Below are positions 3,701-24,856 of a stretch of 64,000 nucleotides of DNA, in pieces. The stretch comes from Candidatus Omnitrophota bacterium (GTDB taxonomy: Bacteria > Omnitrophota > Gorgyraeia > Tantalellales > Tantalellaceae), in contig JADGBR010000001.1 in assembly GCA_015231405.1 (NCBI GenBank), forward strand, positions 385,762-449,761. Reading direction: 5' to 3'. The notes beneath the pieces were generated by a model that had not been told where the DNA came from, did not search any database, and worked only from the letters and a program-made list of their open reading frames with translations. Both the position numbers and the translations under genes were made by a program. Numbering within the stretch: the first letter of the stretch is position 1; every line of letters begins with the position of its first letter.

Positions 3701-6700
3701 CTTAAAAATGGTATGCTCCTAGGGCTCGGCGAGCTATCTTCCAATTATCATGTGAATGTATTCACGACGTTTGAGCCGCTCCTCGAAGCTCTGAAAAAAG
3801 GGGATATACGTCCGGGGCTGCTTTCCCCCGATTTGTTCCTGTCGATAGAGGCGGATACAGGCGCGAATAAAACCTACGCGGCTTTATTATTTAAGACTCT
3901 CGCTGAAACAGGGGCTTTAAAAAATGTCAGTAAAGCACGGATCAAGAAGTATTTCCGAGAAGCCGGGAAGTCGATAAACTCCTGGGATGATTGGAACTCA
4001 CTTGACCATATAGCTTCCATGGCCAGCTCTCTCTATCATGACGATAAGAAAGGCGTATTCGAATTGCTTGGTAAACTCGCAAAAAATTACTCCGGATCTA
4101 TGAGCGTTCTAAAAGAACCTTTTTCGACTCTCCGAAACCAGTTAATGAGGATAGAACCCGAGAAACGGAAAGATATCAAAGACCTTGTTATGAGGATTTT
4201 GCAGCACCCTGACAGTAACCCGGGGAAAGCGCTTGTCACTATAGGCGCGTTCATTAATTTTTCGATAATTTCAACAGGCGATGCGTCAAATATCCAATGT
4301 TTTCTGGATAATATCATGAAGATGGAAACAGATAGAGGTGAAGCCTGGGAAATATTGACAGAACTCGCTGAGATGGGTGTGTTACACGATGAGAACATCG
4401 GCGATCACATAGCGCTATACGAAAAACTCGCTCTGGTAGAAGGGCCGGCCGCCAAAGGATTACTCCATTATGTAAGAGCGCTTAAAAACCTGGATATAGG
4501 GTCCTTAATGATGGACCTTGAACTGCTTACACTTATCGCCGGCGCGGGAGTGCGTAACGTATCAACGCTTTACGATAATCTCGGACCGGTAATAGTAGCA
4601 TATTCAGAAACCAGCGGGAACGTGGGATGCGATGAATTCTTGAGAACGCTTAAGGAAGGGATAAGTGACATAATTAACAAGGGTGCCGGAGAGGACGCGA
4701 TCCTTGAGTTCCTTATCGCGCTAAGGAAAGATTCAAGTCACATACTGGCCAGCGCTGTAGATGCTGTGTCACGGTCCGGATCGGCAATAACAACCTATGA
4801 GGGTTACAAATATCTTCTTCCTGACGAATTGAGGCATATAGCTCTAGACCCATCCATCGAAGAAAGAATAGCGCTAATTAATGACACGAATTTTATGAAC
4901 GGAGATAATCCCGTGTATTTATATCTACTCATGCGGAAGGAAAGCCCCGCGGCGGACGAGCTTTCCTGGGAAGTGTTCAGCGGCATCTTACGCGACGGGA
5001 AAACATTCAATTCTTACTATACGGCAAGCGTGCTCAAATTCATTCAAAAGGCGGTTTTCCACGCCGAGGCCGAACTTGAACCCGAACAGCAGGAGGAGAT
5101 CATAAAACTCTCTATAGCCCTGCATAAAAGCTTTCTGGAAATAGCCGGAAAAAGCGCTGATCAGGGCGCGCCGGTAGTGACTTTCAGGGAGCTGGTTAGG
5201 TTCAATGTCGATTTCTCGAAGTTCTATCTTAAGGAAGAAGGGCTGAAGAACGTATTCGAGATATTGATCCTAACTTCATACAACATATACGGCAGGGTAG
5301 TAACTGACGCCGGTAAAAAGAATGAATTTATAGAAAAGCTTTCCGAAACACTTAGGTCGAAAAAGTATAAAAAACTCCTCATCGAAGGCCAGCGGGATTC
5401 CATTACTATACGCGGTAATCTTTCCCAGCTTATAGAAAGGATCATAGACTATGGGCATTATTCGAAGCTGGATAACGAGCCCGGCCAAAACGATATCCCG
5501 ATAGAAACGTCGTTAAGGGCTTTTATTAAAAGGACTGAGGAAGTGCACCGCCCGGAACTGATGATATTAGACGATGAAAATACTATATTCTTCCAGAATA
5601 TGATCGAAAAGTTATCATCCGAACCAGACAGGGTCATTATCCCCGTTTATATGAACGCTTTCACCAAAAGGCAGGACCTTTTCGGCAAATATGTCCCGAA
5701 AGAGCCCATGAAGCTTGAAGACGCCGCGCGGATAATTGAACTTACCGGAAACTACGATCTCGTAACAGCGATATCCAATGTACTTGGTATCGACCGTGTA
5801 CGCGCGAATGAGTATCTTCTTAAAATGAACGATCCGGATACCCGCATAGAGGAAAACGTTATAACCGCGATCGCCGCATCCATAAAGTCAGGTCCTTTGT
5901 GGAGAGAGAACCTGGTATGGGAGGACGGGATCCTTATCCGTATCGTAAAAGCCGCGGCTAAAAACAGGAAAAAGAAGTTTACGCTCCTTTTCCAGAACAT
6001 TGATGCCTGCCCGGACGAGGTCCGGGTCGAGCTTAATCCGGTACTATGGGAGAATATGATAGAGATACCCGGCGGAAGCGGCAAAATGGATATTACGCCG
6101 AACCTGAATTTCCTGTTCACAATGCACGAGGGATCGCATATACAGGACCCCGCATTCATGGATAGGCCGCTAGTACATAAAATAATGAACGTAAGTGACA
6201 AAGACATAGTAACTTATATAAAGAATGAAGCAAGGCTCGGCGGGGCCGTGCTAGAGCGGCTTATGATGTTCTATAGAGCTGTCAAAGATCCGGCTAATGG
6301 AATTGATATCGAAGCCGGGCTTAACGACTTAATAGAAATAGCTAAAAGGATAAGCGGGCGGGCCGTCGAATACGGTGAAAAGGATTCCGATATAATGGAT
6401 GAAGAGATATATAGGTACCTTTCCCTTAAAACTCCGGATAAAGGCTCAAAAGAAAAACTATGGCGGATGATATCTCCCCGGCGTAGGATCTTCAAATGGA
6501 AACCCCCTGTATCCGATATGGAGGTAAAGAACGGGTCGATCATTTTCAACGGCGTCGGTGTAAAGTTATCCGAAGGAACAATGCTAAAGTGGGGACTTTC
6601 TCCAAATGGGAACGTTAACAAAAAATCGGTAATGAAGATGCTCCTCGACCACTCAGGTTATACCGTTACGGACACTGAGATAGACATTTTCGCGCAGTTA

Positions 6701-9700
6701 GCTCGCGCTATGAAATACGGGGCGAAGGCGATACAGCTCGTCGGACCTTCCGGAGAAGGGAAAACCGAGATAGCGAAGGTGTTCTCAAATATCATAGGGT
6801 ACGGCCTTAATGAAAGAACCGTTAACCAGGATACGGACCTTGCGGATATTCGTGGTGAAGTGAGGCAGGACGAGAACGGAAAGTATTATCTGCATGAACC
6901 GGAGTATATCAAGTCCATCGATAAAGAGGGGCATGTCTTCCTTGTCAATGAGGTAAATACCGGGAATAACGGAGGACTCTACAACTGGTATTTCCCGGAG
7001 ATATCAGGCGCGACCTTTAAACCTCTTAATGAATTTCCGCCGATGGACGGTTCACTTGACAGGTCCAGAACCATAAACCGCGATAATTTATGGATCTTTA
7101 CGGCAAATCCCGATACTACATCGGGAAGAGAAAAAACTCCCGGGAGAGTCTCGGCCCATCTCACAAATTTCTATATGGCCACGGATCCGAAGGATATAGG
7201 GCCGATATGCCGGGACCTGTTCAAGAAAGACAGCTTAAACAAATACGTTAAAAAAGGCAGGATACTGGCTAGGGTTCACAGAAAATTCTATGACTTGAAA
7301 TTGAGCGGCGCGTACCGGGGAGACCAGGATGTTACCAGGCGCGAGCTTATATCAGTAAGGGATAAATTCGAGGCGTATATCAATGATAAGATCGAACCCG
7401 ATACAGCGTTCAGGCAGGCTTTGTATGAGGTATACGTGTATGGATGGAGAAGCCTTATAGACGGAAAACTCGCAAGAACGACTCTTGGTCCCATGGTGAG
7501 GACCGGAGAACTGTTGTCTATGGATGTGTCGTTAAAAGCTTGTTTAAAGGATCCCAAGAAGCCGGTAATATTTTTTAACGACAGCGCGACAACGGGATTC
7601 GATCCCGGTAAGGCCATAGCAGGTATGTTTCCAGATGCTAATGTAAAGAACGTTGTTTTAAGCTATTTTCACCGTAAAAGGCAGCTTTTGGGTGGTTTTG
7701 TCCCCTATGATTCTCCGGATAAGGACGATAAGGAGATGCCGGATGAACTTAAGCACAGATTTATGAGAGGGCTGGGTATTCTGCCTAAAATGATCGAGGA
7801 GGCGAGGTTTGACCGAAACAGAAAAAAATTCATGGTTTTAAGAAATTATACCAGGCTTAATTCGAGGGTGGCGCCGATAATGAACGAGTTCCTCCAGACA
7901 AGGCATATCGCCGAAATGGAGGATATAGTCGATGAAAGGACTGCATATCAGTTAAGATCGAAATTGATCGATAGAAATATGTTCGATGAAGTTTACGGCG
8001 AATTTCTGGAAAAGAATAACGGAATAGAAAGAGACAAAGAAATAACGCGCGAAACCGCAATGCGCCTCGCCAGATGGTTCTACTCGAACGCCCCGGATAA
8101 CCTCTATATCGTAGCCGAAGGGACGTCGAGCGGAGAATCCGATCTTGGCCCTCCCGAGATCAACCGGTTCAACGCGTGGAACACTTCCATTGAAATTGAT
8201 GACAAATGGATCGACGGATACCTTGACGGGAAGATCTCCGGCTATCTTGAACCTTTTAAGGATGTCATAAAAGACGCTGTAAAACGGATATTCTATCTCT
8301 ATGACTTTGAGGCGACATGCGGCGATAATGAATATAACCGTATGAGCGTGAGAGATATAGATAATTTCATTGAAGTATTGAGGGCTCAGGCCACATTAGA
8401 CGATAAAACTATCAAGGAAACCGCTTATTACGCGATGGCTTCCGGGCTCCGGACGAAATATCTCGAGGGTCTAAAGGACATGGTTCCGGAAATTAAAGAC
8501 CCTGCTGATCATATTAAAAAGATAAGGGCAAGAAGAGGCGGATATCTGTCAACTGACCCCGAATATGAACATCTCGCAGACACGGAAAAACTCGCGCGGC
8601 TTTACATGTCCTTCAATATGGCTTTCTCGGCTTCGAGGACAGTCATTTTAGAGGGCCCTACGGGGGGAGGCAAATCATCCGCGGCAAGGGATATAGCGAA
8701 AAGGATGGGCCTTCCTTTCTATGAGATACTCATGTATGACGACATTGACCCCGGCGATTTTCTCGGGAGGATGACAAAGTCAGGGAAAGAATTCATCCTG
8801 ACATGTGATACGGAAAAGCGAAGGCTCCTCATCCCATTTCTCAAAGCTTATACGAAAGGCGGCGTATTCCTTCTCGATGAAGGGGCAATGGGTTTGCAAT
8901 CCAAAGAGGTCATTACATTCTTAACAACGCTCGCTGAGCTTGGAGAGATCGATCTTAATGATCATCATCCCTATGCCGTCGGGAAACTGGATATCCTTAC
9001 GCGTCACCCGGACTTTCACCTTGTTATTGCCCAGAACCCCGGAGGAGAGACTATGGGGCGGACAGAACTCTCTTATGAGGCGATGTCGTCAGCTTTTAAG
9101 ATATGGGTGGATAATTTCATAACTCGGGCGGATTCCCTGAGGATGATCGACCATTATCTCGGAGATCTTTCGTCGAATGTGGAAAAAAAAGATAAAGCCG
9201 TAATATCGGGGATATATGAAAGCTTTTACAAGAAACACCCGGAGGACGGGTCGATAAGCCCGAGGCAGTTGATAACGTCAGTTAAAGTCATAAAAAAACT
9301 ATTGGAAGAAGGGATCAATTTTAAAAAGGCCATTATCCAGGGAATGATAATCTCGTATATGCCTAATATGTCCGAAGATGAGTATGTTTCCTTGAAGAAC
9401 GAGATAGTTTCGATGATCGATAAATTGATCGGGGATGACGATAGGCCAGGCTATAATGACGCGATAAGATCTACGTTCGAACAATGGGAAATGACCGCGG
9501 ATGTTAAGAACTCCGATGGCATTCTCAGCTTGAACGGTTTAGTCCTCCCGTATTCACCCGGCGGATCGAATGTCGACCCGAAAACTATAAAAATAACAGA
9601 AGACCTCGCTTCATTCAACAAGGTGATAAAACATATGGCCTGGGGGATCGCGCTGGATAAGCCGGTTGCCCTCCTTGAAGAGGATGGCGCTGACTCTTTG

Positions 9701-12700
9701 GATATAGTGAAGAAATTCTCACTCATTACGGGATATGACATGCATGTTCTATGGTCTCATGACGAAATGAGAAAGATGCATCTTGTTTCGGGCATATTGC
9801 CTAAATTCGGTAAGGTCCTGGACAAATACGGCGTAAAAAGCAAGGACATCTCCGAAGACTTCAAGCAGGGTCTGGGCTTTTTACTTGAGCACATTGAGAC
9901 GGAAGAGGATTATTTAAAGATGAAAGGCGGCGTCAAGAAGAAGCACAAGATACTCTTTTTTAACTTTATGGACGCTATCCCGGAACGTCAGCGCGTGCTT
10001 TTGAACGAGATACTGACAACTAAAAAACTGAGCGTAGAGGATGAAAACGGCGAGATAATTAATTATCGCCTTCCCGAATGGGTGCATATAGTTGTTTCAT
10101 GCCCGTTAGAACACAGGTTCTCATCCGCGTTCGTGAATAGGTTCATACCGGTAAGGTTGTCTCCGGTAACGGATATGGAGGAACTGAGGCAGATAATACC
10201 TAAGAGGTTCCCGCTTGTAAGGGATGAAGAGCTTGAATGGATAAGGGAAGTGGCTTTATCGGCTTATAAATTCAATAAAGCGGGAGGTTTTAACCGCAAT
10301 TACGGGTTCGCCCCGAACGACATAGAGAAACTAGCCTTGAGGATCCAGATCGAAAAACAAAAAGATATAGAGATCAACAGTTTTAACAGGAATCCACTGC
10401 ACTATATGACTAAAGCGGTTTATTTAAATTACATTCGCGGCATCGAAGATACAAATGACAGGGAAAGGTTCGAGAATGAGATATTCGTGCATCCGTTCCT
10501 TGAGACGTCGGTGTTCATCGAAAGAAAATTCGGCGCGAAGATCGACACGAGCGGCAACGTTAATTTAAGCGCCGATGAGATAAGCCGTTACCTAAATATC
10601 GGGATAGATATTAACAAACTCAAAGTACCGGCGGACGAACTTGCCGAGCATAAAAGGAACATCGATATTCTCGCGAAAAGGTTCGGTAAAGGATCGCAAC
10701 TTCTCCGGGAAACAATGAATCAGACGGACTCTAGAGGATTAAGGGCAGCATCCGTATATAGGAAACTTAGCGTTGAGTTTATCAATAATGCCGCTTTAGC
10801 TGACATTTATCGCCTGGAGATCACCCCGCGGGAAGGCTCGGAAACAGTAAAAATCATTGTGGCCATAAGCCGTCGGCCTAAGGCGGCTGTCCCGGAGTAT
10901 GACGCTAATAAAGAATTCAATAATCTGAGAGAATTATATCACGCGCTCCCTAAAAACACCGCTAAGCCGCTTTCTTACGCGGAAGAAGAAAAGAACGGCG
11001 ATGTTTATACTATCGTTTGTACAGAATCGCTGGAAAACCACGGGAGTCCTCATATCGTTTTCTCGGGAGGAGATCATAGAGTCCTTAGTATCGCGGAAAT
11101 CGGCAATGATAACGGAAAGGGCGACCATTTCATGAATGAGGATTATCTCGCGTTCCTTCAGGATCTAATCGGTCTTCAGATGGATGCGTTCGAAAAAGCC
11201 AGTAAAATACTCGATCCGAGAACGATCTCCGGGGATATCATGTATCCGTTCCTTATAGAAAACCAGCCAAAGGGCAGTGATTATCATTTAAATGCTGACC
11301 TGGCCTTTAGGACAGTCGCTTATGAGGGCGCTAAACCTTTGAAAATTACCAGCGCGGATAGACTACGGGATGGCAATAAGAAGGACCTCATTACGAGTAT
11401 CTTCAAGACGCATCAAGTGATCAATTGTGAAGGGGGTTGCAGAAAAAATGAAGAGGATATGCCGATCCCGGTATATGACAACTTATACGCTTTTTACATG
11501 TTCCTTGAGAAGAAACATCCCGGTAACGGTATGATAGAACTTCTGGATCTTCTGAAATACTATAATGAAGATATGACCTGCTACGGAAAGGACCCGGAAC
11601 TGGCCAGGATCTTTGAAACTGTCATGACAGATCCGGACAGGATCCTTAAAGCAGGTGAAAAGCGTTCGCCTCTTTATAGCGTTAATTTCATGAATTTATC
11701 CTTACTTAAACCAGATGTGGACATGATATACAGAGATATGAAAAAAGTGATAGAGGATGAACTTTCGCAGGTGAAAAGGGACACGTTTGATATCGTAAAG
11801 GTCGATATCGGGTCGATACCTTACAATAAAGCGATCTCACCGAAACCCGGTATTGAAATACTGAGAAATGACGATAACTATATCATTAGAACCCCAGCGA
11901 AAAGATATCTTGTGCCATTGTCGGAGTTCGGTGAAAGACGTGAACTTTCGCCCTATCTGAATATCTGGAAGAAAGACAATGATATGATGCTAGAGTTCAG
12001 ACTTATCAGCTCTATCGGAGGGGTCGAGCTTAAACGGGATGAGATCAATAAGTCAAACAGCCTGCCGGAAACGGAAGTGGCTACGTCTGAGTATATTTAC
12101 AATACAGATGAGATCAATATGATGACATCGGCACTACTTCGTTCCTGGGAGCCGGTCATCGACGGGGCTGGAAGACTTATCCTGCCGCGTGTCGTGCTGC
12201 TGGACGGGGAGACTGCTACGGCAAAAACGACGAGGATAAGGAATCTAGCGAGGATATGGGGATCGGATCTATATATACTCAACTCTTTCCATGATATAAG
12301 CGTCGCGGATACGACCGTAAAGCTGAGCGTCGAAAAAAGCAAGGTAAAGCTCAGCGTAAGGGAATTTCTCGCCCGGTTAGGCACGGTGAACGGCCAGAGG
12401 GTGGAGATCAAAGGTAAAAAAACGTCATCGCGTTCGATACTTCTCATAGATGAGGCTAACGCTTGCCCGGAGCTCTTTACCGCCCTTATGCCGATATTTC
12501 TGGGTGAAAAAAAGTTCTCGTTCAATTACGCCGGCGAAACTTTCAACGTCGAGATCGACGATGAGGTCATGGTCGTTCTGACCTTCAATCCGCCCGACAC
12601 ATATTCCGGGAGGGGATTCTTCCTGGAAAAACTCCTTTTCCTGTCGGATAAATTATGGGCACCGGACCCTATGACCCTGCCTGACCATATAATCGCAGGG

Positions 12701-15700
12701 ATACTCGGCGAATATCACAGGCGCGGAGTCACGAAAAAAGACGCCGTGTTAACAGCCGAGGATCAAGGTTCCCCCGAAGAGAGGATCGAGTCAAGTTATA
12801 GAAAGGTCGAGCCGGTCAATATCGGGGTCAAAGACCTCTCCCATCCGGATATTATGACGCTTGAGGAAATGGTAGACGATTCCAAAAAGAAGAGGACAAG
12901 GAAACGCGATACAAATGTGGAGTTCAATTTCGACTTGTCTAGATTAGCGGCCGACCTTTTCGCCATAGAAGCGTCGGATGATGATGCCAGACGTAACGCG
13001 AGGTTCACCGAACAAGTGCTGATACCCTTACTTTTAGGTTTGGGCCTTGGAGGGGTAGACGCCGAAATTATCCCAAAGGTATTGGATGGATCCAGGAAAG
13101 TCGATGAGAAATTACCCGAGATCATATCTTCGATCGTCGGCATATACGGACAGCCTTTGATCGAGGTAACTGAGCTGAAAGAGGCTCTCCGAAAACTCAA
13201 ACTCTTGTACGTCGAAAAATTTAACGTTTATCTCAATGTTAACATAACGTTAAAGGATGGTTCACCTCTAATAATAATCTATCCCAAGCCTATACTTGAA
13301 AAAGTGAGTTTTCCGCAAAAAAAGTTCGAGTCGCTGGGAATGCGACAGGTCTCCTATATGACGTATTCCATGAAAAAAGAATTTCTTCTGGTGGAGGGGG
13401 GGAAAGAGGATCACGATATCTCAAAATGCGGCGGATGCGGTGGGAATGATATAACCCAACCGTCCGAATCCGATATGATCGTCGATGACGGGGATAATTA
13501 TGTTATCTACGGTACCAAAATATTGTCTCTCGAAGGGATAGCTCCTCCGGTCGAGGTGATGAAATGGTTCGCGTATACGACGATGGGATTAAAAGCAGCC
13601 GAAAATCATAGCGAATCCCTAAAAAGAGACCTTGATGACCGCTGGCATCGCGGATGGGAAGAAAGAGAAAAACGTCAGAAGGAATACCAGGAATGGAGTG
13701 CAGTATGGATCCATTCGAGGCTTTTCCCGGCCATATTATCGGACTATTCAGTCGAATATCTGCTGAATTTCTTGGGATATTATCTTCTGGAGGTAAAAGA
13801 CCCGGAAGACCAAAGTTGTGTTGTGGCTATGCAAATATATAACGCTTTTCTCTCCTATTTTAAATCTCATAACCGTCTCCCCGAAGACATGCCTAAAATA
13901 TCGGATAAATTTGACGGGAAGACGATAGCGGCTGTCTCGGATATGATCAGAAAGGAGACATCTTCCGGTATAAATAAGATAGCTGCCGGTTTTTATGAAA
14001 AATTCGGCGAGTATTTTACGGACTTAAAGGTCCCCAAAAGAAAGATGGTAGTATATAAGTCAAGACACGTCCGAGAGAATGCGCCAATTTTAGATATACT
14101 TGACGTATTCAGAGGAGCCGGCGATATAGCCCCTCCGATGGATGATGTGGAAGTTGAGTACAGGTACACGGATGATGGCATTGGCGCACCGGAAGATAAG
14201 AAAGGAACTCAGGAAAAAGAAAAAATCAGAAAGCCCTCTCGGCTTATAGATACAAAAAATAAAGATCAAAGAACCACAAAAAGCGTCATAGGACAAAAAG
14301 GCGGCGGTGTCGCTTCGCCGAAGTCAGTAATGATCAGGGATGAGATTCAGACCCTCCTGAGGATATCACCCAGGTTGACATCAAGATTCCTTTCGATATT
14401 CGCGGGACTCCCGGATATAAGAAAAATATTCTCCGATTCCGGCGACGAACTCGACATAGAGAAGATAATTACCGGAGACCTGGAGCCATTTTTTCGCAAA
14501 CGGGTCGAAAGCAAGATTGCGAAACTCGATTGCGGCATCACGATCGACATAAGCGGATCGGTCGGAGGGGAACTCGCTGAAAATTATATGAATATGGTCA
14601 GGTTATATTCATCGCTGTTCTATTACGCATCGGTCAGGAATAAGGATGTTTCATTCTCCGTGAGCAGTTTGGGTTCAACATTCAAAAAATTCATCGAGTT
14701 CGGCGACTCGAGAAAAAAAGCGGTGATAGAGCAAAAACTGGGAAAGGTCAAGCAGCTATTGTCCTCCGAAGGGACCGATATCCCCGCAGCTATCAGAGGA
14801 ATAACCGAAAAATACGCTAAAAGGACGTCGAAGAACAAGATGGAGATCGTGCTGACCGATGGCGATGACTGTTCCGGTACGCCTATCGAAAAACAAATAG
14901 AAATGATCAAAGAAGCCGAAAAGAAAGGGATCGATATAATCTTTGTAGGTATAAATACGAAAAGCGTCGCCAATTATCCTAAATATCTACTCCTCGACCA
15001 TAAACCTTCTACGGAAGAGCTTATGGACCTAATTATGAAGCTGGCTATGTTAAAGAACCGCAAAGGGATGCTTCCCGAAGGAGATATCGGGGCATGGTTC
15101 GGTAAGAGCGTTCCGATAAAAAAGGAAAAGAAAAGAACGAATGAGCCGCAATATGTAACGGCGCCATCTATTTCTCCGTTAATTATGCTGTTGGGGTGGT
15201 GGGCCTTAATTATTCCTATGATGTTCATCGCGCATGACATTGTGGTTTATCTGCTTAACAATAGCCATCAATTTACCAAATGGTTGAAAGGGCATGAAAT
15301 TATCGGCAACACGTTGAGATCACTTTGTAGTGATTATATCCTCTTGGGAAAGCGATATTATCCCAACGAGCCGGTAATGGCCGCTCCTCATTCTGCCGGA
15401 GTGAATGATCGGATCATTGCGGGAACATCGGATAATGATCGATACGCACCCGCTCGATATTTGCCTCCTGCCGGGGCGGAAGTTGTTCATAACCGGGTAA
15501 CGCCCCTGAAAAAGGACACAGCTAAGATGCATGCGAAAGCGTTAGTCGCCGCCGGGGACATATCCAGTCCTGAAATGACGGCTAAACTTATTGTAGATAA
15601 GCTCCTATCGCGCGCTATGACCGGAAAAATAGCGCTGGCCTTTGATAAGGATCTCGGGGGCCAGAATTCAACCATTATACTTTCCGTATTTGAAGAACTG

Positions 15701-16144
15701 GCGAGACTTAAAAAGACCAGGAAATTCAGGAGGATCCTTGAGAACGTTGAGGTCGTGATAGGTGAACCCGCGGAACTGGCGAAAAATATCGACGATCTTA
15801 TGACAAGAGATTTCGAGGTCTTTATGTTCGCGAGGGAAACGGAGAGGGAGCGATTCCTGAAAAAAGAAGAAGGAATGCGCGCGGTATATGTAAACGAGAG
15901 CGCTCATCCGGACATGGCATATTATCCGCTCGCGGAAATAGTGGCGATATCCCTCGCCCAGGCGTTCGACCCGAAGACGATCGAAAGGATAGGGAAAGCT
16001 TTCGAGAAACTCAATATAAGCCCGGAAAATATCAACAGGGTAACCGCTCTCGTGTTTACGCTTATCCCTGAGGCCGTTGAACTAGATAAACAGGAATATA
16101 TCCGTAGATACGCGGTTCTAAAACGGTATTTGAAAGCCGCGTAA
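776..16144 (+). CDS. Giant 5122-aa protein with three MoxR/midasin-type AAA+ ATPase modules, a vWA/MIDAS domain, a C-terminal TM helix and a conserved C-terminal module
   Basis: Uninterrupted 15,369-nt ORF. Walker A motifs: GPSGEGKT (6743-6766), GPTGGGKS (8654-8677), GETATAKT (12206-12229). Walker B: FLVNE (module 1, Asp replaced by Asn, 6947-6952), LLDEG (8876-8881), LIDEAN (12449-12454). MoxR-like sensor-1 motifs FTANP, IAQNPG, LTFNPPD. vWA MIDAS DISGS (14546-14560) with downstream LTDGDD. Hydrophobic helix APSISPLIMLLGWWALIIPMMFIAHDIVVYLL (~15161-15256). No N-terminal signal peptide. The start could instead be the ATG at 812 (MHKTLV...). Confidence 0.9.
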   Translation: MLLSLGITTAISMHKTLVKNLLNYLLILCFILEDISWAFEIEPSIRISSNNLQVQTPFKPISDEDIGMTLRLKALIKAALSYINQEVKIDDELIADFDSCLSPADGMKHLWEPVTLDGNDISWARFNYLLDFTDHGTSISGKRKEGINWVIDCSIGKGDEFWEYEAVITPDKSVYLRIPGTDDYIGERPGQTQGDSKRKGEDPYFGEGQGLLGTMTSDVAYSVSKRDYLWEYPRAENILPELNRLFPLDKIKAVLGADIERIKVVFQIFRKDDTAAEFPGKEIFAEMIYPYSGSNQFAIIFTEKAYHLFMEAFKDDLEPLLKAMMFHLYSEFYCRKPRHIAYLMAIQKYPAEMARLAKVFPELRFEIKEDIRTDILEATGFKGDHKAEKTFDLMMSKGLANNKNSLEIKALFGTVRFIKTERRCSTDKAFDCLGKLINAGSVTKDNIDKVNEFFLKVTERMDYSGDWMLDEVMRFINKIERKKLDRSAIGMEFLSFISEHDEHTATSSFRVAGIMAESGIVNKSNMHKVKELINCLSGSFGFGSLDHKALFKALGRAKLLSPDRFGEIHALLIQLFSYKTGTRDWPDGYRSEKTRAIIRLAKKIGDGKLNVQASDLKWLIRTISGMRHSVSVYNVVDIMAVFWETGIAGKKDHGKLSKLFRRMDSLPILDEDRDRGDGNPYKSLIKLAEDTLAGRIHKEQVDLDMLIHLCRDDWSVDSKQEMYRKMLVLGLTEGLGKREIKVVLDKFSDDYWGISPNLDEMLVNKEKYRLDLPEPRLFVRLVKTIPGNISKAMNYISILTGIPGYNFSNCGDLAELLELTKTAVDRFQGQNAFEDAIYYAKKVRDEHLPADAIDHSIVMKLYRRTHKNGDEDTRLRNQFSILGSAAAIGLDIRAGYDELAEFHDMFGSRFEEQSEHALSVYVRSVIDEKLDRSLVDIKFLKVLFGNVSHSYIDSAISEILKTARRIKIGELPGGPLKNGMLLGLGELSSNYHVNVFTTFEPLLEALKKGDIRPGLLSPDLFLSIEADTGANKTYAALLFKTLAETGALKNVSKARIKKYFREAGKSINSWDDWNSLDHIASMASSLYHDDKKGVFELLGKLAKNYSGSMSVLKEPFSTLRNQLMRIEPEKRKDIKDLVMRILQHPDSNPGKALVTIGAFINFSIISTGDASNIQCFLDNIMKMETDRGEAWEILTELAEMGVLHDENIGDHIALYEKLALVEGPAAKGLLHYVRALKNLDIGSLMMDLELLTLIAGAGVRNVSTLYDNLGPVIVAYSETSGNVGCDEFLRTLKEGISDIINKGAGEDAILEFLIALRKDSSHILASAVDAVSRSGSAITTYEGYKYLLPDELRHIALDPSIEERIALINDTNFMNGDNPVYLYLLMRKESPAADELSWEVFSGILRDGKTFNSYYTASVLKFIQKAVFHAEAELEPEQQEEIIKLSIALHKSFLEIAGKSADQGAPVVTFRELVRFNVDFSKFYLKEEGLKNVFEILILTSYNIYGRVVTDAGKKNEFIEKLSETLRSKKYKKLLIEGQRDSITIRGNLSQLIERIIDYGHYSKLDNEPGQNDIPIETSLRAFIKRTEEVHRPELMILDDENTIFFQNMIEKLSSEPDRVIIPVYMNAFTKRQDLFGKYVPKEPMKLEDAARIIELTGNYDLVTAISNVLGIDRVRANEYLLKMNDPDTRIEENVITAIAASIKSGPLWRENLVWEDGILIRIVKAAAKNRKKKFTLLFQNIDACPDEVRVELNPVLWENMIEIPGGSGKMDITPNLNFLFTMHEGSHIQDPAFMDRPLVHKIMNVSDKDIVTYIKNEARLGGAVLERLMMFYRAVKDPANGIDIEAGLNDLIEIAKRISGRAVEYGEKDSDIMDEEIYRYLSLKTPDKGSKEKLWRMISPRRRIFKWKPPVSDMEVKNGSIIFNGVGVKLSEGTMLKWGLSPNGNVNKKSVMKMLLDHSGYTVTDTEIDIFAQLARAMKYGAKAIQLVGPSGEGKTEIAKVFSNIIGYGLNERTVNQDTDLADIRGEVRQDENGKYYLHEPEYIKSIDKEGHVFLVNEVNTGNNGGLYNWYFPEISGATFKPLNEFPPMDGSLDRSRTINRDNLWIFTANPDTTSGREKTPGRVSAHLTNFYMATDPKDIGPICRDLFKKDSLNKYVKKGRILARVHRKFYDLKLSGAYRGDQDVTRRELISVRDKFEAYINDKIEPDTAFRQALYEVYVYGWRSLIDGKLARTTLGPMVRTGELLSMDVSLKACLKDPKKPVIFFNDSATTGFDPGKAIAGMFPDANVKNVVLSYFHRKRQLLGGFVPYDSPDKDDKEMPDELKHRFMRGLGILPKMIEEARFDRNRKKFMVLRNYTRLNSRVAPIMNEFLQTRHIAEMEDIVDERTAYQLRSKLIDRNMFDEVYGEFLEKNNGIERDKEITRETAMRLARWFYSNAPDNLYIVAEGTSSGESDLGPPEINRFNAWNTSIEIDDKWIDGYLDGKISGYLEPFKDVIKDAVKRIFYLYDFEATCGDNEYNRMSVRDIDNFIEVLRAQATLDDKTIKETAYYAMASGLRTKYLEGLKDMVPEIKDPADHIKKIRARRGGYLSTDPEYEHLADTEKLARLYMSFNMAFSASRTVILEGPTGGGKSSAARDIAKRMGLPFYEILMYDDIDPGDFLGRMTKSGKEFILTCDTEKRRLLIPFLKAYTKGGVFLLDEGAMGLQSKEVITFLTTLAELGEIDLNDHHPYAVGKLDILTRHPDFHLVIAQNPGGETMGRTELSYEAMSSAFKIWVDNFITRADSLRMIDHYLGDLSSNVEKKDKAVISGIYESFYKKHPEDGSISPRQLITSVKVIKKLLEEGINFKKAIIQGMIISYMPNMSEDEYVSLKNEIVSMIDKLIGDDDRPGYNDAIRSTFEQWEMTADVKNSDGILSLNGLVLPYSPGGSNVDPKTIKITEDLASFNKVIKHMAWGIALDKPVALLEEDGADSLDIVKKFSLITGYDMHVLWSHDEMRKMHLVSGILPKFGKVLDKYGVKSKDISEDFKQGLGFLLEHIETEEDYLKMKGGVKKKHKILFFNFMDAIPERQRVLLNEILTTKKLSVEDENGEIINYRLPEWVHIVVSCPLEHRFSSAFVNRFIPVRLSPVTDMEELRQIIPKRFPLVRDEELEWIREVALSAYKFNKAGGFNRNYGFAPNDIEKLALRIQIEKQKDIEINSFNRNPLHYMTKAVYLNYIRGIEDTNDRERFENEIFVHPFLETSVFIERKFGAKIDTSGNVNLSADEISRYLNIGIDINKLKVPADELAEHKRNIDILAKRFGKGSQLLRETMNQTDSRGLRAASVYRKLSVEFINNAALADIYRLEITPREGSETVKIIVAISRRPKAAVPEYDANKEFNNLRELYHALPKNTAKPLSYAEEEKNGDVYTIVCTESLENHGSPHIVFSGGDHRVLSIAEIGNDNGKGDHFMNEDYLAFLQDLIGLQMDAFEKASKILDPRTISGDIMYPFLIENQPKGSDYHLNADLAFRTVAYEGAKPLKITSADRLRDGNKKDLITSIFKTHQVINCEGGCRKNEEDMPIPVYDNLYAFYMFLEKKHPGNGMIELLDLLKYYNEDMTCYGKDPELARIFETVMTDPDRILKAGEKRSPLYSVNFMNLSLLKPDVDMIYRDMKKVIEDELSQVKRDTFDIVKVDIGSIPYNKAISPKPGIEILRNDDNYIIRTPAKRYLVPLSEFGERRELSPYLNIWKKDNDMMLEFRLISSIGGVELKRDEINKSNSLPETEVATSEYIYNTDEINMMTSALLRSWEPVIDGAGRLILPRVVLLDGETATAKTTRIRNLARIWGSDLYILNSFHDISVADTTVKLSVEKSKVKLSVREFLARLGTVNGQRVEIKGKKTSSRSILLIDEANACPELFTALMPIFLGEKKFSFNYAGETFNVEIDDEVMVVLTFNPPDTYSGRGFFLEKLLFLSDKLWAPDPMTLPDHIIAGILGEYHRRGVTKKDAVLTAEDQGSPEERIESSYRKVEPVNIGVKDLSHPDIMTLEEMVDDSKKKRTRKRDTNVEFNFDLSRLAADLFAIEASDDDARRNARFTEQVLIPLLLGLGLGGVDAEIIPKVLDGSRKVDEKLPEIISSIVGIYGQPLIEVTELKEALRKLKLLYVEKFNVYLNVNITLKDGSPLIIIYPKPILEKVSFPQKKFESLGMRQVSYMTYSMKKEFLLVEGGKEDHDISKCGGCGGNDITQPSESDMIVDDGDNYVIYGTKILSLEGIAPPVEVMKWFAYTTMGLKAAENHSESLKRDLDDRWHRGWEEREKRQKEYQEWSAVWIHSRLFPAILSDYSVEYLLNFLGYYLLEVKDPEDQSCVVAMQIYNAFLSYFKSHNRLPEDMPKISDKFDGKTIAAVSDMIRKETSSGINKIAAGFYEKFGEYFTDLKVPKRKMVVYKSRHVRENAPILDILDVFRGAGDIAPPMDDVEVEYRYTDDGIGAPEDKKGTQEKEKIRKPSRLIDTKNKDQRTTKSVIGQKGGGVASPKSVMIRDEIQTLLRISPRLTSRFLSIFAGLPDIRKIFSDSGDELDIEKIITGDLEPFFRKRVESKIAKLDCGITIDISGSVGGELAENYMNMVRLYSSLFYYASVRNKDVSFSVSSLGSTFKKFIEFGDSRKKAVIEQKLGKVKQLLSSEGTDIPAAIRGITEKYAKRTSKNKMEIVLTDGDDCSGTPIEKQIEMIKEAEKKGIDIIFVGINTKSVANYPKYLLLDHKPSTEELMDLIMKLAMLKNRKGMLPEGDIGAWFGKSVPIKKEKKRTNEPQYVTAPSISPLIMLLGWWALIIPMMFIAHDIVVYLLNNSHQFTKWLKGHEIIGNTLRSLCSDYILLGKRYYPNEPVMAAPHSAGVNDRIIAGTSDNDRYAPARYLPPAGAEVVHNRVTPLKKDTAKMHAKALVAAGDISSPEMTAKLIVDKLLSRAMTGKIALAFDKDLGGQNSTIILSVFEELARLKKTRKFRRILENVEVVIGEPAELAKNIDDLMTRDFEVFMFARETERERFLKKEEGMRAVYVNESAHPDMAYYPLAEIVAISLAQAFDPKTIERIGKAFEKLNISPENINRVTALVFTLIPEAVELDKQEYIRRYAVLKRYLKAA
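14520..15000 (+). other. vWA/MIDAS domain of giant protein 1
   Basis: DxSxS motif DISGSVGG followed by the hhhhTDG motif (IVLTDGDD) and the IDIIFVGI beta-strand, typical of the vWA Rossmann-like fold. Confidence 0.7.
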
Positions 16145-16189
16145 TGTAAAAGATCAAGGAGCGATTATGTAAGTTGGAGCCGAAAGCTC

Positions 16190-16939
16190 ATGAAAAAGAA
16201 AAACGCGATAAAGATAGCCGTTAAACTTATCTCGGCGTTCCTTGTGACCGTACAACTCGGCGAGGAAGTACCCTCGGCCGAGCCCGTGACTTACATGAAC
16301 CGTCCTTCCGGAGAGACCCTTGCCGTCGAGTCCATTTTTACAGGAGGCGATGAGGCGAAGCAGATTGAGATAAAGCTGGCTTTACTTATCAGGCTTATAA
16401 AAGAGGATAACATGAGGTTCAAGGATTTTAAATATAAAATACCCCCTTGCGGGAACGGTATAAGCTACGTTATAGATCTTGAGAATAAAACCGGCGGCAC
16501 GGGGAAAAGGTCGTGGGATGTTCCGTGTATGATCACTGACGATAGAGGCGGGTTGCAATTAAATGTTAAGGCCCTTGTTAAGGGTGACGGCGAGGTAAGC
16601 ATAGTTTATCCATGGGAAGCGGAAAAAGGTACCCCTTCGGTCGTAACGGACATAAGTCCGGACAAACTGTCAAAACCTTCAAACGGCGCCTCTTCGGCGG
16701 TTGTTTTAGAAGGAACATCGACAGGACAAAGCTGGGTTAAAAATTTCATCTATAAAGCGTTAACTCCTTCCAATATGCGTATAATTGTCGTGATAATCGC
16801 GACGACAGTATTCGGGATCCTGGCCAATACGTCATTCCCATGGGTTCTCAAAGCGCCGTATTTTGTCAATACCGCTATATATTTCTTCCTAAGCGAACTT
16901 ATATCCCAAACATACGAACGCATTAAAATAATGCAGTAA
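16190..16939 (+). CDS. Bitopic membrane protein of unknown function (N-terminal signal/anchor helix plus C-terminal TM segment)
   Basis: 249-aa ORF. GGAG lies 12 nt upstream. N-terminal hydrophobic helix KIAVKLISAFLVTVQL. C-terminal hydrophobic stretch IIVVIIATTVFGILANTSFPWVL...AIYFFLSELI. Confidence 0.6.
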   Translation: MKKKNAIKIAVKLISAFLVTVQLGEEVPSAEPVTYMNRPSGETLAVESIFTGGDEAKQIEIKLALLIRLIKEDNMRFKDFKYKIPPCGNGISYVIDLENKTGGTGKRSWDVPCMITDDRGGLQLNVKALVKGDGEVSIVYPWEAEKGTPSVVTDISPDKLSKPSNGASSAVVLEGTSTGQSWVKNFIYKALTPSNMRIIVVIIATTVFGILANTSFPWVLKAPYFVNTAIYFFLSELISQTYERIKIMQ

Positions 16940-16972
16940 AAAGGCGTATGGAAACCCTATGAATGGGATAGA

Positions 16973-18415
16973 ATGGCGATTGTCGCGATCTTATGCGGAG
17001 CATTTTTCGGGGTAGTATGGGACCTGCTATATAAGGGATATCTGGGATTTATCCCTAACGATACACTCGCCGGGAAAATGATAAGGCCATACATGGATAT
17101 GTCCAGCGCTACGATCCTTTCCGTTCTATGGCCGTTTTTTCTTCTCGGTTTTTGTGAAAAGTATAAAGCCAAAAGGCCAGAGGGTGTAACGTTAAGGAAA
17201 TACGCCGTCGATACGGTCAAGGCTATCTGGAACGAGAAAAAAGATAATTTCGTCAAAACGATAGTAGCCTGCTGGCTGATATGGTATCCGCTGCAATTGT
17301 GGAATATTAACAGGATAGCCGGCTCCGGTGATATGGTCTCGGCCATCGCGGTATTTGAGCTCCCCTGGGCTATTTTCTGGATACTCCTCGCGGGTTTTAA
17401 GGGTGCCGATAAAAGTTATGGGTCCCTGCCGGGTCGAATCGCGTCTTTCGGGGTAGGTTCATTTATCGGTTTCTTTATGCTTAGGATAGGTGTTTTGTAC
17501 GGTATATTAGGTTTCGTCGACCCTTTTTTGAATATCCTGGCACCGGTTTCAGGGCTGATCGCGATATGGATATCAGAAAACTATCCCTGGCAAAAAAAGT
17601 CCGATGCCGAACCTGAAAATAAGATCTCTCCGGGAGTTCTAGCGGAGAGCTCATCGCTTAGCCCTATTCCCGATAGCCCCGATGATAGACCCGCCGAGGA
17701 ACTAATGACGGATCCGGATAATGCCGGTAAAAAGCGGATATTATTCGATTACCTTGAAAAGTCCTCCGGCCCGGATGCCAGGAATATCTCCGATCCGGAA
17801 GAGGTGGCAAAAGGGCTTATCGAAACCGTAATTTCGAAGTTATTGGAAAAAGACCGTAAAATTGTCATAGCTGTGCATCACGACATAAACGCCGCACAAA
17901 CCGAAGATATCGCCGGGCTATTGAGAACGTTCACAAGACTAAAGGGTTCGAGGGGTTTCAGGGAATTAATGAGCGATCTAGTGATAATACCTTCTTTTAC
18001 CTCCGGCGCGGACCTTGAGGAACAGCTAAAAAGGAATAATGTCGACTCGTTAAAGAAAGACGACGTGATCTTTACTTTCAATCCATCAATTAAGAATAAC
18101 GTCATATCTGTCTCCCAGGGTTCTATTATTCCGGTATTCATCGATGATAATGCTGTAAAAGGGGGAGGGTGGTACTATCCCCTCGCGGAAATAATACTAA
18201 TTACACTGATGAAATACCACTTGAATAGAACGGCGGAACAGCTAAAAGACATTTTCGGTCCAACGGCCCTGTCCGGGGACAATATCGGAGATATCATGGA
18301 CTCCGGCACAGAGGCTTATCTCATATTCACCATCTTGCCTAAAACCGAAAAGTATCCGCCGGGAGAAAGGGTAGACAGGTGCGCGAGGATAAAACAATTC
18401 CTCATGGCCGCTTAA
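16973..18415 (+). CDS. Polytopic membrane protein (~6-7 TM helices) with a C-terminal soluble module paralogous to the C-terminal ~200 aa of giant protein 1
   Basis: 480-aa ORF. The N-terminal 205 aa are strongly hydrophobic. The C-terminal region aligns by eye with the ORF1 C-terminus: KIVIAVHHDINAAQTEDIAGLLRTFTRLKGSRGFRELMSDLVIIPSF vs KIALAFDKDLGGQNSTIILSVFEELARLKKTRKFRRILENVEVVIGEP. Both share YYPLAEI. The C-termini are KQFLMAA vs KRYLKAA. Confidence 0.8.
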   Translation: MAIVAILCGAFFGVVWDLLYKGYLGFIPNDTLAGKMIRPYMDMSSATILSVLWPFFLLGFCEKYKAKRPEGVTLRKYAVDTVKAIWNEKKDNFVKTIVACWLIWYPLQLWNINRIAGSGDMVSAIAVFELPWAIFWILLAGFKGADKSYGSLPGRIASFGVGSFIGFFMLRIGVLYGILGFVDPFLNILAPVSGLIAIWISENYPWQKKSDAEPENKISPGVLAESSSLSPIPDSPDDRPAEELMTDPDNAGKKRILFDYLEKSSGPDARNISDPEEVAKGLIETVISKLLEKDRKIVIAVHHDINAAQTEDIAGLLRTFTRLKGSRGFRELMSDLVIIPSFTSGADLEEQLKRNNVDSLKKDDVIFTFNPSIKNNVISVSQGSIIPVFIDDNAVKGGGWYYPLAEIILITLMKYHLNRTAEQLKDIFGPTALSGDNIGDIMDSGTEAYLIFTILPKTEKYPPGERVDRCARIKQFLMAA

Positions 18416-23299: not shown

Positions 23300-24856
23300 A
23301 TGAACCTTAAAGATAATAACAATAAGCCGCATCATTCCGAAGAGGAGATCCAAAAGTGTATAGATATCCTGACAACGCTTGTCGGTGATAATAAATACCT
23401 GGCGCAGTTATCGGAAGAGAAGCGCAAGACTCTTTTGAACGTGTCCGGCCAGCTCTCCAGGCCTGACCGTGATGAAATTAGAAGACGCAGGATGGCGAGC
23501 CGGGCCGAGAAAAAGAAGAAGATCGTAACATATGAGCGAGAACTTCGCGCGGCGACCGGTATCCGAAGCGCCCGAGAGGCGTCTGTATTTACCGCGCCTA
23601 AACAGATCGCGCCTGAGGATGGAGCAATAAAAGACAAACAGCCGGAACTAGTCAATTCCCGTGACTGTTATATCTGTAAAAGCGCTTTTACCAAGGTCCA
23701 TTTCTTTTACGACGCTTTATGCCCGAGCTGCGCTGATTTCAATTACAATAAACGTTTTCAGACGGCTCCTTTAACGGGCCAGGTGGCATTGATAACGGGA
23801 TCCAGGTTGAAGATAGGGTATCAGGCGACGCTCATGATGCTCCGGGCCGGCGCCAGGGTCATCGCCACTACGCGCTTTCCGGTAGATTCAGCGCTCCGCT
23901 ATTCACGCGAAAAAGATTTTGACGAGTGGAAGGACCGCTTACATGTGTATGGCCTTGATCTAAGGCATACACCGAGCGTTGAGATATTCTGTAACTATAT
24001 CGAGCAGAAATATGACCGCCTGGATCTATTGATAAATAACGCGGCTCAAACCGTGCGCCGTCCGCCGGGATTTTACGCTCATTTGATCGATAATGAGAAA
24101 AAACAAGCTGATGATCTTCCGGAAAGCGTCAGAATGCTTCTGAGGCCTTTTGATGAGTGTAAAAAGCAACTTAGGGCTATGGACCATAACAACGAGACTA
24201 CTGACCTGTCTCTTCCTGCATCCTGGAACGGGAAAGCCCCGGGTATAGGGATATTCGCCTCGGCCAGGCTCTCTCAAGTGCCGTACGCGTACGATCACTC
24301 TCTGCCCGTCGAACAAGTCTTCCCAAAAGGCGAATTGGACGCCGATCTTCAGCAGGTCGATCTCAGGGCGACCAACAGCTGGCGCCTTCGCCTGGGCCAG
24401 ATACCGACCGCCGAGATGTTCGAATTACAGCTCGTGAACGCTATCGCGCCGTTCGTCCTCTGTAACAGGCTGTCGGTGATGATGAAACGCCAGAATACCG
24501 GCCAGAAACATATAGTCAATGTCTCCGCAATGGAAGGAAAGTTCAGCCGCTACATCAAAACCGCCTGTCATCCTCATACAAACATGGCTAAAGCCGGTTT
24601 GAATATGCTAACCCATACCTCAGCTCGAGACCTTGTCGAAAGCGGTATCTTCATGAATTCCGTCGATACCGGCTGGGTCACCGACGAGGACCCCGCCGCG
24701 CTTTCCAAACGCAAGCAGGAAATCCTGGATTTCCAGCCGCCCCTGGATATAGTCGACGGCGCCGCCAGAGTTTGCGACCCGTTTTTTGACGGAATACTTA
24801 CTGGTAAACACTGGTGCGGCAGGTTCCTCAAGGACTATTTCCCTGTAGAATGGTGA
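23300..24856 (+). CDS. Short-chain dehydrogenase/reductase (SDR) family oxidoreductase with an N-terminal extension containing a CxxC...CxxC zinc-ribbon-like motif
   Basis: 518-aa ORF. Rossmann motif [35 protein letters not shown] motif LLINNAAQT. Possible active-site Y..K region in [15 protein letters not shown]-terminal segment [27 protein letters not shown]. Confidence 0.65.

Follow-up and report, generated by a model that had tools for sequence, protein, structure and literature searches.

Two conserved end-domains frame highly diverse proteins in an apparently undescribed family found mostly in Omnitrophota

The 64,000-nucleotide stretch analyzed here (the window; positions 385,762 to 449,761 of the forward strand of contig JADGBR010000001.1, assembly GCA_015231405.1) comes from a Candidatus Omnitrophota bacterium and encodes a giant protein of 5122 amino acids (aa) with AAA_5 ATPase and VWA domains, followed by two open reading frames (ORFs) of 249 and 480 aa. 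The giant and the 480-aa protein end in the same module, and this module is very probably the C-terminal signature domain of a large family that so far occurs almost only in Omnitrophota and is apparently undescribed. The full-length members share one plan, in which a signal-like start with a conserved N-terminal domain (N-domain) and the C-terminal domain enclose a hypervariable middle that measures between 0.2 and 6.7 thousand residues. In our best explanation, the two end-domains have a role in handling the proteins that they frame, and to this explanation as a whole, family description and handling role together, we give a probability of about 0.6. The mechanism taken by itself, with the end-domains as a matched pair of handling modules for targeting or assembly, is more tentative and in our estimate falls somewhat short of even odds.

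When the last 314 aa of the giant were compared with the 480-aa protein by BLASTP, an alignment of 212 aa was obtained (70.5 bits, E 7e-18, 25% identity, 49% positives), which extends to the final residue of each protein (...LKAA and ...LMAA). A hidden Markov model (HMM) of the module, built exclusively from proteins of other organisms and leaving the window sequences out, matched aa 4927-5122 of the giant (E 1e-60) and aa 269-480 of the 480-aa protein (E 4.6e-43), and no other protein of the window; thus, the module was not found on the other large proteins encoded there (1506, 6162, 1992, and 2263 aa). A six-frame tblastn search with either copy did not reveal further copies in the window, the next best match having an E value of 0.3. 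A chance or low-complexity similarity is ruled out by the BLASTP E value and the leave-out HMMs, and the relation between the two C-termini is, judged from these alignments, one of homology. The first-pass annotation of this DNA had proposed such a ~200-aa C-terminal module common to both proteins; the module is real, its coordinates agree with ours, and the similarity is readily detectable in a proper pairwise alignment.

An exhaustive profile search of 1.84 billion representatives, clustered at 50% identity, yielded matches to the module in at least 364 clusters (E≤1e-3), of which 278 reached E≤1e-10 and 117 reached E≤1e-30. Among the 150 hosts listed, whose lengths range from 150-aa fragments up to 6939 aa, the module lies at the extreme C-terminus in every case (150/150), the match ending at the last residue or a few residues before it. 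Its signature is an invariant YYPLAE-type motif within the ~200 aa at the chain end. The last residue is Ala in 133 of these 150 hosts and Val in 14, and the last two residues are most often AA (83), SA (32), or NA (9), usually preceded by L, K, R, or I. The module has no match in Pfam or NCBIfam, and its best sequence matches in PDB (phmmer and hmmsearch, E 0.11-0.15) were not significant. A word-indexed search of 5.8 billion clusters proved to be nearly blind in this case, since the module profile returned a single relative (P0001); nothing was found there for the transmembrane (TM) part of the 480-aa ORF. Pattern scans located the module in four genome loci, three in metagenome-assembled genomes (MAGs) of Omnitrophota and one in a MAG labelled Planctomycetia, and in eight metagenome loci. 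In all 12 loci it closes a large ORF, and the regions upstream of it encode soluble GNAT-like, P-loop-kinase-like, metallophosphoesterase, and GGDEF-like domains, recognized in part by sequence inspection.

Three observations on individual loci can be added. The Omnitrophota MAG and the 'Planctomycetia' MAG of loci L002 and L003 carry a syntenic arrangement of a giant with the module, a redoxin, and a response regulator, and their modules are very similar, which suggests either that the latter MAG is mis-binned or mislabelled or that the family extends outside Omnitrophota. In locus L004, a 117-aa ORF (4442-4795) right after a family giant corresponds to the C-terminal half of the module only (E 1.9e-26, ending in ...IMKAV) and may be a remnant or a free-standing half-domain. 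Finally, a 499-kb metagenome contig (L007) contains two consecutive module-terminated genes (1-2499 and 2489-10618), the first with a divergent copy (E 6e-13), and this is another case of adjacent paralogues.

The other end of the proteins is conserved as well. In BLASTP comparisons with 150 representatives, 17 other module hosts proved to have N-termini similar to aa 33-220 of the giant, and the N-termini of further hosts were matched by the 249-aa ORF. A leave-out HMM of this N-domain recognized aa 13-185 of the giant (E 3.2e-23) and aa 1-156 of the 249-aa ORF (E 9.8e-17); no other protein of the window has the N-domain, and none of 400 shuffled controls matched the leave-out HMMs. When the N-domains of the giant and the 249-aa ORF were compared directly, the BLASTP score was not significant (E 0.01), and thus it is the family profile, together with transitive BLAST hits, that connects them. 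Of the hosts of at least 3000 aa, 19 of 20 have the N-domain, and of those of 1000-3000 aa, 36 of 49. The hosts that lack it look like truncated gene calls, and the genes that are complete in their loci (L007, L008, L009, L010, and L014) carry both end-domains.

The family N-terminus starts with a K/R-rich segment, continues with a hydrophobic stretch and '..I.WA', and reaches 'NP(D/E)', or (N/D)P(E/D) in the broader form of the family pattern; the hydrophobic stretch and the c-region together measure 18 residues in 31 of 36 cases. It is followed by the N-domain proper, of ~130 aa, with the consensus LQVQS.F.P ... DF..K..EG..W.(V/I)PC ... YEAVI.PD. In its layout, this start corresponds to a Sec signal peptide whose position -1 is Ala. 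The giant fits it from Met13 (MHKTLVKNLLNYLLILCFILEDISWA/FE), and since this signal-peptide-like start is conserved family-wide, the earlier statement that the giant lacks a signal peptide is contradicted. We also considered a pilin-like, lipoprotein, or twin-arginine translocation (Tat) N-terminus and found no supporting motifs; in particular, the family consensus has no Gly/Glu5 prepilin motif of a class III signal of type IV pilins, and the pattern is Sec-like.

The five genes of the region are co-oriented on the + strand and encode the 5122-aa giant, the 249- and 480-aa ORFs, and then downstream proteins of 1506 and 518 aa. The features of the first three genes, in window positions, are the following:

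776..16144, + strand: giant gene g5122, 5122 aa counted from the ATG at 776
812..889, + strand: signal-peptide-like N-terminus of the giant, MHKTLVKNLLNYLLILCFILEDISWA, matching the family pattern
890..1330, + strand: N-terminal family domain of the giant (LQVQTPFKP ... LDF..K.KEG.NWVIDC ... YEAVITPD), found by leave-out HMM, BLASTP, and jackhmmer
6737..6967, + strand: AAA_5 (MoxR/dynein-type) ATPase domain 1, Walker A motif GPSGEGKT at aa 1990
8642..9073, + strand: AAA_5 ATPase domain 2, Walker A motif GPTGGGKS at aa 2627
14540..14962, + strand: VWA domain, about aa 4589-4729, with the metal-ion-dependent adhesion site (MIDAS) motif D-I-S-G-S
15167..15235, + strand: TM-like segment of the giant, LIMLLGWWALIIPMMFIAH..., aa 4798-4820, from the Hessa-scale scan
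15554..16141, + strand: C-terminal family module, copy 1, aa 4927-5122, ending in ...YLKAA
16190..16939, + strand: 249-aa ORF (NCBI HQL30_01855), the 5' half of a split family gene
16937..16939, + strand: in-frame TAA between the 249-aa and 480-aa ORFs
16973..18415, + strand: 480-aa ORF (MBF0215718.1)
16973..17572, + strand: polytopic membrane bundle of the 480-aa ORF, aa 1-200, 5-6 TM segments
17777..18412, + strand: C-terminal family module, copy 2, aa 269-480 of the 480-aa ORF, ending in ...FLMAA

These results correct the annotation of the locus in two respects. The NCBI entry for the giant (MBF0215716.1, 'AAA family ATPase') has 5055 aa and starts at Met68 (nucleotide 977), a start that drops the conserved signal-like helix and the LQVQ motif; therefore, the start should be Met13, i.e., the ATG at 812 that is indicated by the family consensus. 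Secondly, the 249- and 480-aa ORFs, both annotated at NCBI as hypothetical proteins (locus tags HQL30_0185x), are one interrupted gene. They lie in the same frame, separated by one TAA and 11 further codons (KGVWKPYEWDR). Along a family protein of 741 aa (P0012), one finds successively the counterparts of the 249-aa ORF, of the TM bundle of the 480-aa ORF, and of the module. Their conceptual read-through product, also of 741 aa, aligns with P0012 from end to end (38% identity, E 1e-156); the TM bundle is 49% identical to aa 255-454 of P0012, and the 'intergenic' codons align too (YEWDRM versus LQWDKM). This alignment across the junction, together with the shared frame, demonstrates that the two ORFs are halves of one gene. 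The front half comprises a signal-peptide-like helix, the N-domain (aa 1-156), one TM helix (aa 198-216), and an amphipathic segment, and in the back half 5-6 TM segments are joined by an acidic linker to the module. The 249-aa protein had been suggested as a third component beside the two module-bearing proteins; it is indeed linked to the 480-aa protein, but as the front half of the same ancestral gene and not as the product of an independent one.

The TAA in the window may be a true nonsense mutation or polymorphic in the population, may stem from an error of the assembly, or may be read through. Recoding or an alternative genetic code was considered and is unsupported, TAA being the normal stop of 12 of the 15 window genes. 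In an Omnitrophota MAG (JAJRVD010000018; L005), a family gene is likewise cut into three same-frame ORFs by TAA codons at 1492-1494 and 2557-2559, one of which directly follows the GNHD motif of a metallophosphoesterase domain. In-frame TAAs in family genes of two MAGs may thus reflect pseudogenisation, assembly error, or programmed read-through. We also observed that all five genes of the region (starting at 776, 16190, 16973, 18743, and 23300, +) share one reading frame (position = 2 mod 3); since the family ends mark true termini, this is probably a coincidence, the 249/480 pair aside.

The two family genes of the window are remarkably distant from each other. In their similarity to each other, they rank 65th of 68 for the C-terminal module (25% identity) and 60th of 68 for the N-domain (19% identity), and each of the two genes has relatives of 40-44% identity in other organisms. 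A recent tandem duplication is ruled out as the origin of the two copies, since the pair is among the most divergent in the family; the window contains two old paralogues side by side. Across the hosts, the distances between N-domains and those between C-terminal modules are correlated (Mantel test, Spearman 0.35, p≤0.001, reached in 0 of 999 permutations).

The region between the end-domains is, in contrast to the ends, hypervariable, and it contains enzymes dependent on adenosine triphosphate (ATP), S-adenosylmethionine (SAM), coenzyme A, pyridoxal phosphate, or Fe-S clusters, as well as sensor modules and membrane bundles. We scanned against Pfam the middles of 37 hosts, i.e., 26 full-length hosts without an internal TM helix and 11 hosts of 3-5 thousand aa. 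The former contain Radical_SAM with B12-binding (three hosts), DeoC (two), GDE_C, TIM, glutamate/leucine dehydrogenase, cytidylate kinase, GH77, GH130, RmlD, GAPDH, epimerase, HD, GNAT, Metallophos, M23, methyltransferases, and UDPGP; the latter contain HATPase_c (five hosts), SAM methyltransferases (four), Bac_transf, RidA, GNAT, an FNT transporter, MutS_V, PALP, ATP-grasp, PAS, HAD, CheB, and sigma70 region 2. The CxxxCxxC motif is intact in five hosts and the SCTT motif of GAPDH in one, and some of the cargo looks functional by these motifs. There are also complete members of 574-780 aa without any Pfam cargo (e.g., P0023, P0050, and P0074). AAA_5 and VWA are not among the cargo families listed for these 37 other hosts, and thus, the AAA-VWA body of the giant is just one cargo type of many.

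No conserved neighbours of family members were found in ten loci, where the flanks consist of unrelated housekeeping genes that encode GroES, PilZ, CinA, LigT, LexA, SerRS, a redoxin, and others, and no secretion or transporter genes lie beside the ten members concerned. P0012, the only intact orthologue of the 249+480 gene, is flanked by housekeeping genes and by a 3192-aa protein that has neither end-domain, and hence adjacency to the AAA-VWA giant is not conserved. A co-occurrence of the module with AAA-vWA giants, for which the first-pass annotation had proposed a check, is not apparent from the cargo of the scanned hosts or the surroundings of P0012.

To inspect the module itself, the copy of the giant was modelled with AlphaFold2. 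With an alignment of 51 sequences the model reached a predicted local distance difference test (pLDDT) of 91.9 and a predicted template modelling score (pTM) of 0.89, an earlier alignment of three sequences having given a pLDDT of 52.7. The modelled chain begins with a pair of helices and continues into a core of four parallel strands (beta-alpha-beta-alpha-beta-alpha-beta), after which come the YYPLAE loop with a helix, two short helices, a beta-hairpin (LIFxLLP), and a long terminal helix that ends at the conserved Ala. The model is a generic alpha/beta sandwich, and fold searches revealed no specific PDB relative. The conserved positions are mainly core hydrophobics together with S4945, K4979, N4990, Y5049, Y5050, P5051 (100%), E5054, N5080, P5098, Y5112, and A5122, and because most of the conservation concerns core hydrophobics, a structural or binding domain fits better than an enzyme.

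Membrane topology was judged from hydrophobicity scans and the positive-inside rule only. The sole segment of the giant that passes the Hessa-scale scan is aa 4798-4820, within ~32 hydrophobic residues in all and with a central Pro; basic residues are abundant in the flank towards the VWA domain (KKEKKR), and the flank towards the module is weakly basic. Read naively, the positive-inside rule gives a cytoplasmic AAA-VWA body and an outside location of the module; a signal peptide of the family type would place the body outside, against that reading. For the 480-aa ORF, a 6-TM model (21 K/R inside versus 4 outside) predicts a cytoplasmic module and is supported by the basic tail that follows the last TM segment in P0012, and a 5-TM model (16 versus 9) predicts a module outside. 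Of the sidedness check proposed earlier for the two window copies it can be said that this crude topology tends to place them on opposite sides, although the 5-TM model reverses that. As for the TM helix that had been described before the module, a TM-like segment does precede each window copy, but it is not a family feature, as no TM helix lies just upstream of the module in any of the 12 pattern-scan loci. A conserved TM-plus-linker sub-module at that place was also considered and rejected, the upstream regions being unrelated. Across the family, 26 of 68 full-length hosts have no internal TM helix, or about 30 after discounting spurious matches inside the module, and in these hosts, with no TM between the N-domain and the module, both ends must be on the same side. 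The parity of TM counts (Kyte-Doolittle threshold) gave no usable signal, the hosts that have internal TM segments showing about 18 even and 20 odd counts.

Taken together, we infer that the two end-domains would be matched non-catalytic handling modules, acting as a common address or assembly tag. We favour such a pair because the ends are constant with any cargo between them, the position at the chain end is strict, the last residue is conserved, no partner gene is linked, and the two ends co-diverge. In the proposed mechanism, the N-terminal signal would bring the protein to the cytoplasmic membrane, and the C-terminal domain, with its conserved free C-terminus, would dock to a putative common partner, which might be a machinery acting in trans or else an N-domain, either its own or that of another family member. 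A multitude of unrelated 'passenger' activities would thereby be gathered in one envelope-associated assembly. The passengers may have entered a short ancestral protein that consisted of the N-domain and the C-domain alone and had a linker tolerant of insertions.

Several points weigh against this interpretation. The docking partner of the C-terminal domain is a putative one. The correlation between the N- and C-terminal distances is equally expected from simple duplication without physical contact. The localisation is paradoxical, in that a cleavable-looking Sec signal would export the TM-less members whole, while the cargo of these members needs cytoplasmic cofactors, as the CxxxCxxC motifs and the SCTT motif of GAPDH indicate. 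A recent preprint on complete genomes reports the same mixture of signal peptides and metabolic enzymes for long Omnitrophota proteins generally (bioRxiv 10.64898/2026.06.07.730766). Furthermore, the Gly-rich loop after strand 1 (AFDxxxGG.QS) and the conserved K, E, and Y could mark a ligand site, and the N-domain profile, when used in the nearly blind word-indexed search, returned the 249-aa ORF and nothing else.

A bolder version would see here an Omnitrophota-specific protein-handling system for hundreds of end-framed enzymes, ATPases, and sensor modules of cytoplasmic type. The two ends would bind mutually or to one common receptor, and the passengers, exported or tethered in this way, would polymerise head-to-tail into an envelope-associated or prey-directed enzyme coat. 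We consider it doubtful; if true, such a coat would represent a new sorting and assembly principle and would explain the fusion of housekeeping-type enzymes into signal-bearing giants.

Rather less probable, in our view, is that the module serves as a C-terminal export or sorting domain, i.e., that whole proteins are exported by Sec and the module is read at an outer-membrane or surface step, to form a surface coat or effectors directed to prey or host. The canonical-looking signal peptide, the strict extreme-C-terminal position, and the conserved last residues would fit, and ATP, SAM, and similar cofactors are available inside prey or host cells. Chlamydia, which likewise belongs to the PVC group, secretes glycogen-metabolism enzymes. 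A predatory or parasitic life has been described for Omnitrophota, which are nanobacteria, and their giant proteins have been proposed to be extracellular (PMC10066038; bioRxiv 10.1101/2023.11.21.568195), and a signal peptide (SP), alone or with TM segments, was predicted by DeepTMHMM in 48% of long Omnitrophota proteins (bioRxiv 10.64898/2026.06.07.730766). However, the alpha/beta fold is unlike known C-terminal sorting domains, no secretion genes adjoin any member, many members have multiple TM segments, and Sec export is difficult to imagine for domains like sigma70 region 2, MutS_V, PAS/HATPase, CheB, or a radical SAM enzyme whose cluster motif is intact.

It is unlikely, and more so than an export domain, that the module is a cis-acting regulatory domain that binds a ligand, e.g., a nucleotide or second messenger, and controls the upstream cargo, the co-occurrence with the N-domain then reflecting shared ancestry. 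The Rossmann/flavodoxin-like core, the conserved residues near the C-terminal strand ends, the Gly-rich loop, and a PilZ gene downstream of one member would be compatible with ligand binding. Nevertheless, a CheY-like receiver is not recognizable, as strand 3 does not end in an Asp of the receiver type and conservation of the Asp that follows strand 1 is only 65%; a single regulator for such unrelated cargo, including pure membrane bundles, would be unusual, and the strict chain-end position and the terminal Ala would be left unexplained.

The first-pass annotation had suggested a dedicated membrane docking or assembly pair, in which a tail-anchored, cytoplasmic AAA-VWA giant pairs through a far-side module with the module of its neighbour and the 249-aa protein is a third subunit. 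The two genes are adjacent and co-oriented, both window copies follow TM segments, and like domains often homodimerise. This explanation is nonetheless very improbable. The module occurs family-wide on hosts with unrelated cargo, the TM segment before it is missing in most hosts and the upstream TM-plus-linker region is unconserved, the gene neighbours vary, the orthologue P0012 has no adjoining family giant, few pairs in the family are less similar than the window copies, the supposed third subunit and the 480-aa protein belong to one gene, and by rule-based topology the modules tend to come out on opposite sides. Least probable of all is a gated degron, with the module controlling the access of a ClpXP- or Tsp-type protease to the ...(A/S)A-COOH end and hence family-wide turnover, for although the ssrA tag, read by ClpX, ends in LAA-COOH and the chain ends tabulated above resemble it, a conserved fold of 200 aa would be unneeded, the terminal helix is confidently packed in the model, and no protease gene is linked.

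Regarding known systems, the family of end-framed proteins resembles the cargo of the type IX secretion system (T9SS) in its Sec-like N-terminus, conserved chain-end domain, diverse passengers, and scattered paralogues without linked machinery. Nevertheless, the C-terminal domains (CTDs) of T9SS cargo are beta-sandwiches of ~70-100 aa from Bacteroidota, whereas the module is a parallel alpha/beta domain of ~200 aa without a Pfam or NCBIfam CTD match, and the family adds a second conserved domain at the N-terminus and cytoplasm-type cargo; no T9SS machinery (PorU/V/K/N etc.) was seen within the window, which covers 64 kb of a 491-kb contig. RTX adhesins of the LapA/MpIBP type share with the family the giant sizes and the conserved ends around a very long variable body. 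They differ in that no RTX/HemolysinCabind repeats were detected in the giant and no genes for ATP-binding cassette (ABC) transporters, membrane fusion proteins (MFP), or TolC lie near family members; moreover, substrates of type I secretion systems (T1SS) have no Sec-type N-termini, and the family cargo is enzymatic and not made of adhesive repeats. Docking domains of polyketide synthases and nonribosomal peptide synthetases (PKS/NRPS) and the cohesin-dockerin system, in which terminal modules join unrelated catalytic proteins, are closest to the mechanism favoured here. The likeness lies in the proposed role and in the co-divergence of the N and C ends; there is no kinship in sequence or fold, and the family domains are much larger than PKS docking helices.

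The body of the giant, with AAA_5 domains and a C-terminal VWA domain carrying DxSxS, resembles MoxR AAA+/VWA pairs and midasin (Rea1), and thus this cargo probably works like a MoxR-VWA remodelling machine. In contrast to the ring of six AAA modules of midasin, two Walker-A-containing AAA_5 domains and one partial stretch were found by sequence, although degenerate modules could escape such detection. The AAA_5 domains are, besides, fused into a 5122-aa protein between the family end-domains, a feature of the cargo and not of the module.

Previous work on long Omnitrophota proteins (West-Roberts et al., 2023; Seymour et al., 2023; and the 2026 preprint) concerns the same phylum and reports proteins that likewise contain SP and TM segments and have Pfam domains of metabolism and regulation embedded in them (radical SAM, GNAT, HAD, AAA_5, HATPase). 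Unlike the published giants, the family includes many members of ordinary size (574-1500 aa). Term searches of bioRxiv 10.1101/2023.11.21.568195, PMC10066038, bioRxiv 10.64898/2026.06.07.730766, and the huge-protein survey PMC11573180 did not reveal any reference to a conserved N-domain and C-terminal module, and West-Roberts et al. state that the N-terminal regions of giants 'generally lack identifiable domains'. Omnitrophota are ultra-small, probably predatory or parasitic, and have the longest proteins in biology, the function of which is essentially unknown. The end-domain pair, found in members from 574 aa to ~6900 aa, gives a handle to define one coherent family among these 'dark' long proteins. 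Being two small and well-folded domains, they are amenable to expression and to tests of localisation, self-association, and partners, and they offer a concrete route to establish whether enzyme-laden giants act inside or outside the cell.

The rest of the window contains a second, different family of giants, encoded at 25198-43686 (+, 6162 aa), 45257-51235 (-, 1992 aa), and 51441-58232 (-, 2263 aa), none of which has the N-domain or the C-terminal module described above. They share a common region of ~500 aa after the signal peptide (29-34% identity, E 1e-54 to 3e-88) and a short C-terminal motif, ...I.R.(N/D)..EI......E.(L/F)(R/W)(S/K)(L/V)-COOH. Between these giant genes, overlapping genes for a HepT-like RNase and an MNT-type nucleotidyltransferase (44284-45094, -) form a toxin-antitoxin pair. 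Downstream of the 480-aa ORF, the 1506-aa protein (18743-23263, +) has a signal-peptide-like N-terminus followed by BACON_2 and ASH/MSP-type Ig-like domains and, unlike the cargo of the giant's family, looks genuinely extracytoplasmic. The next gene (23300-24856, +) encodes a short-chain dehydrogenase (SDR) of 518 aa with an N-terminal extension of ~155 aa, whose SDR match falls in two stretches (aa 161-252 and 370-470), implying an insertion of ~115 aa.

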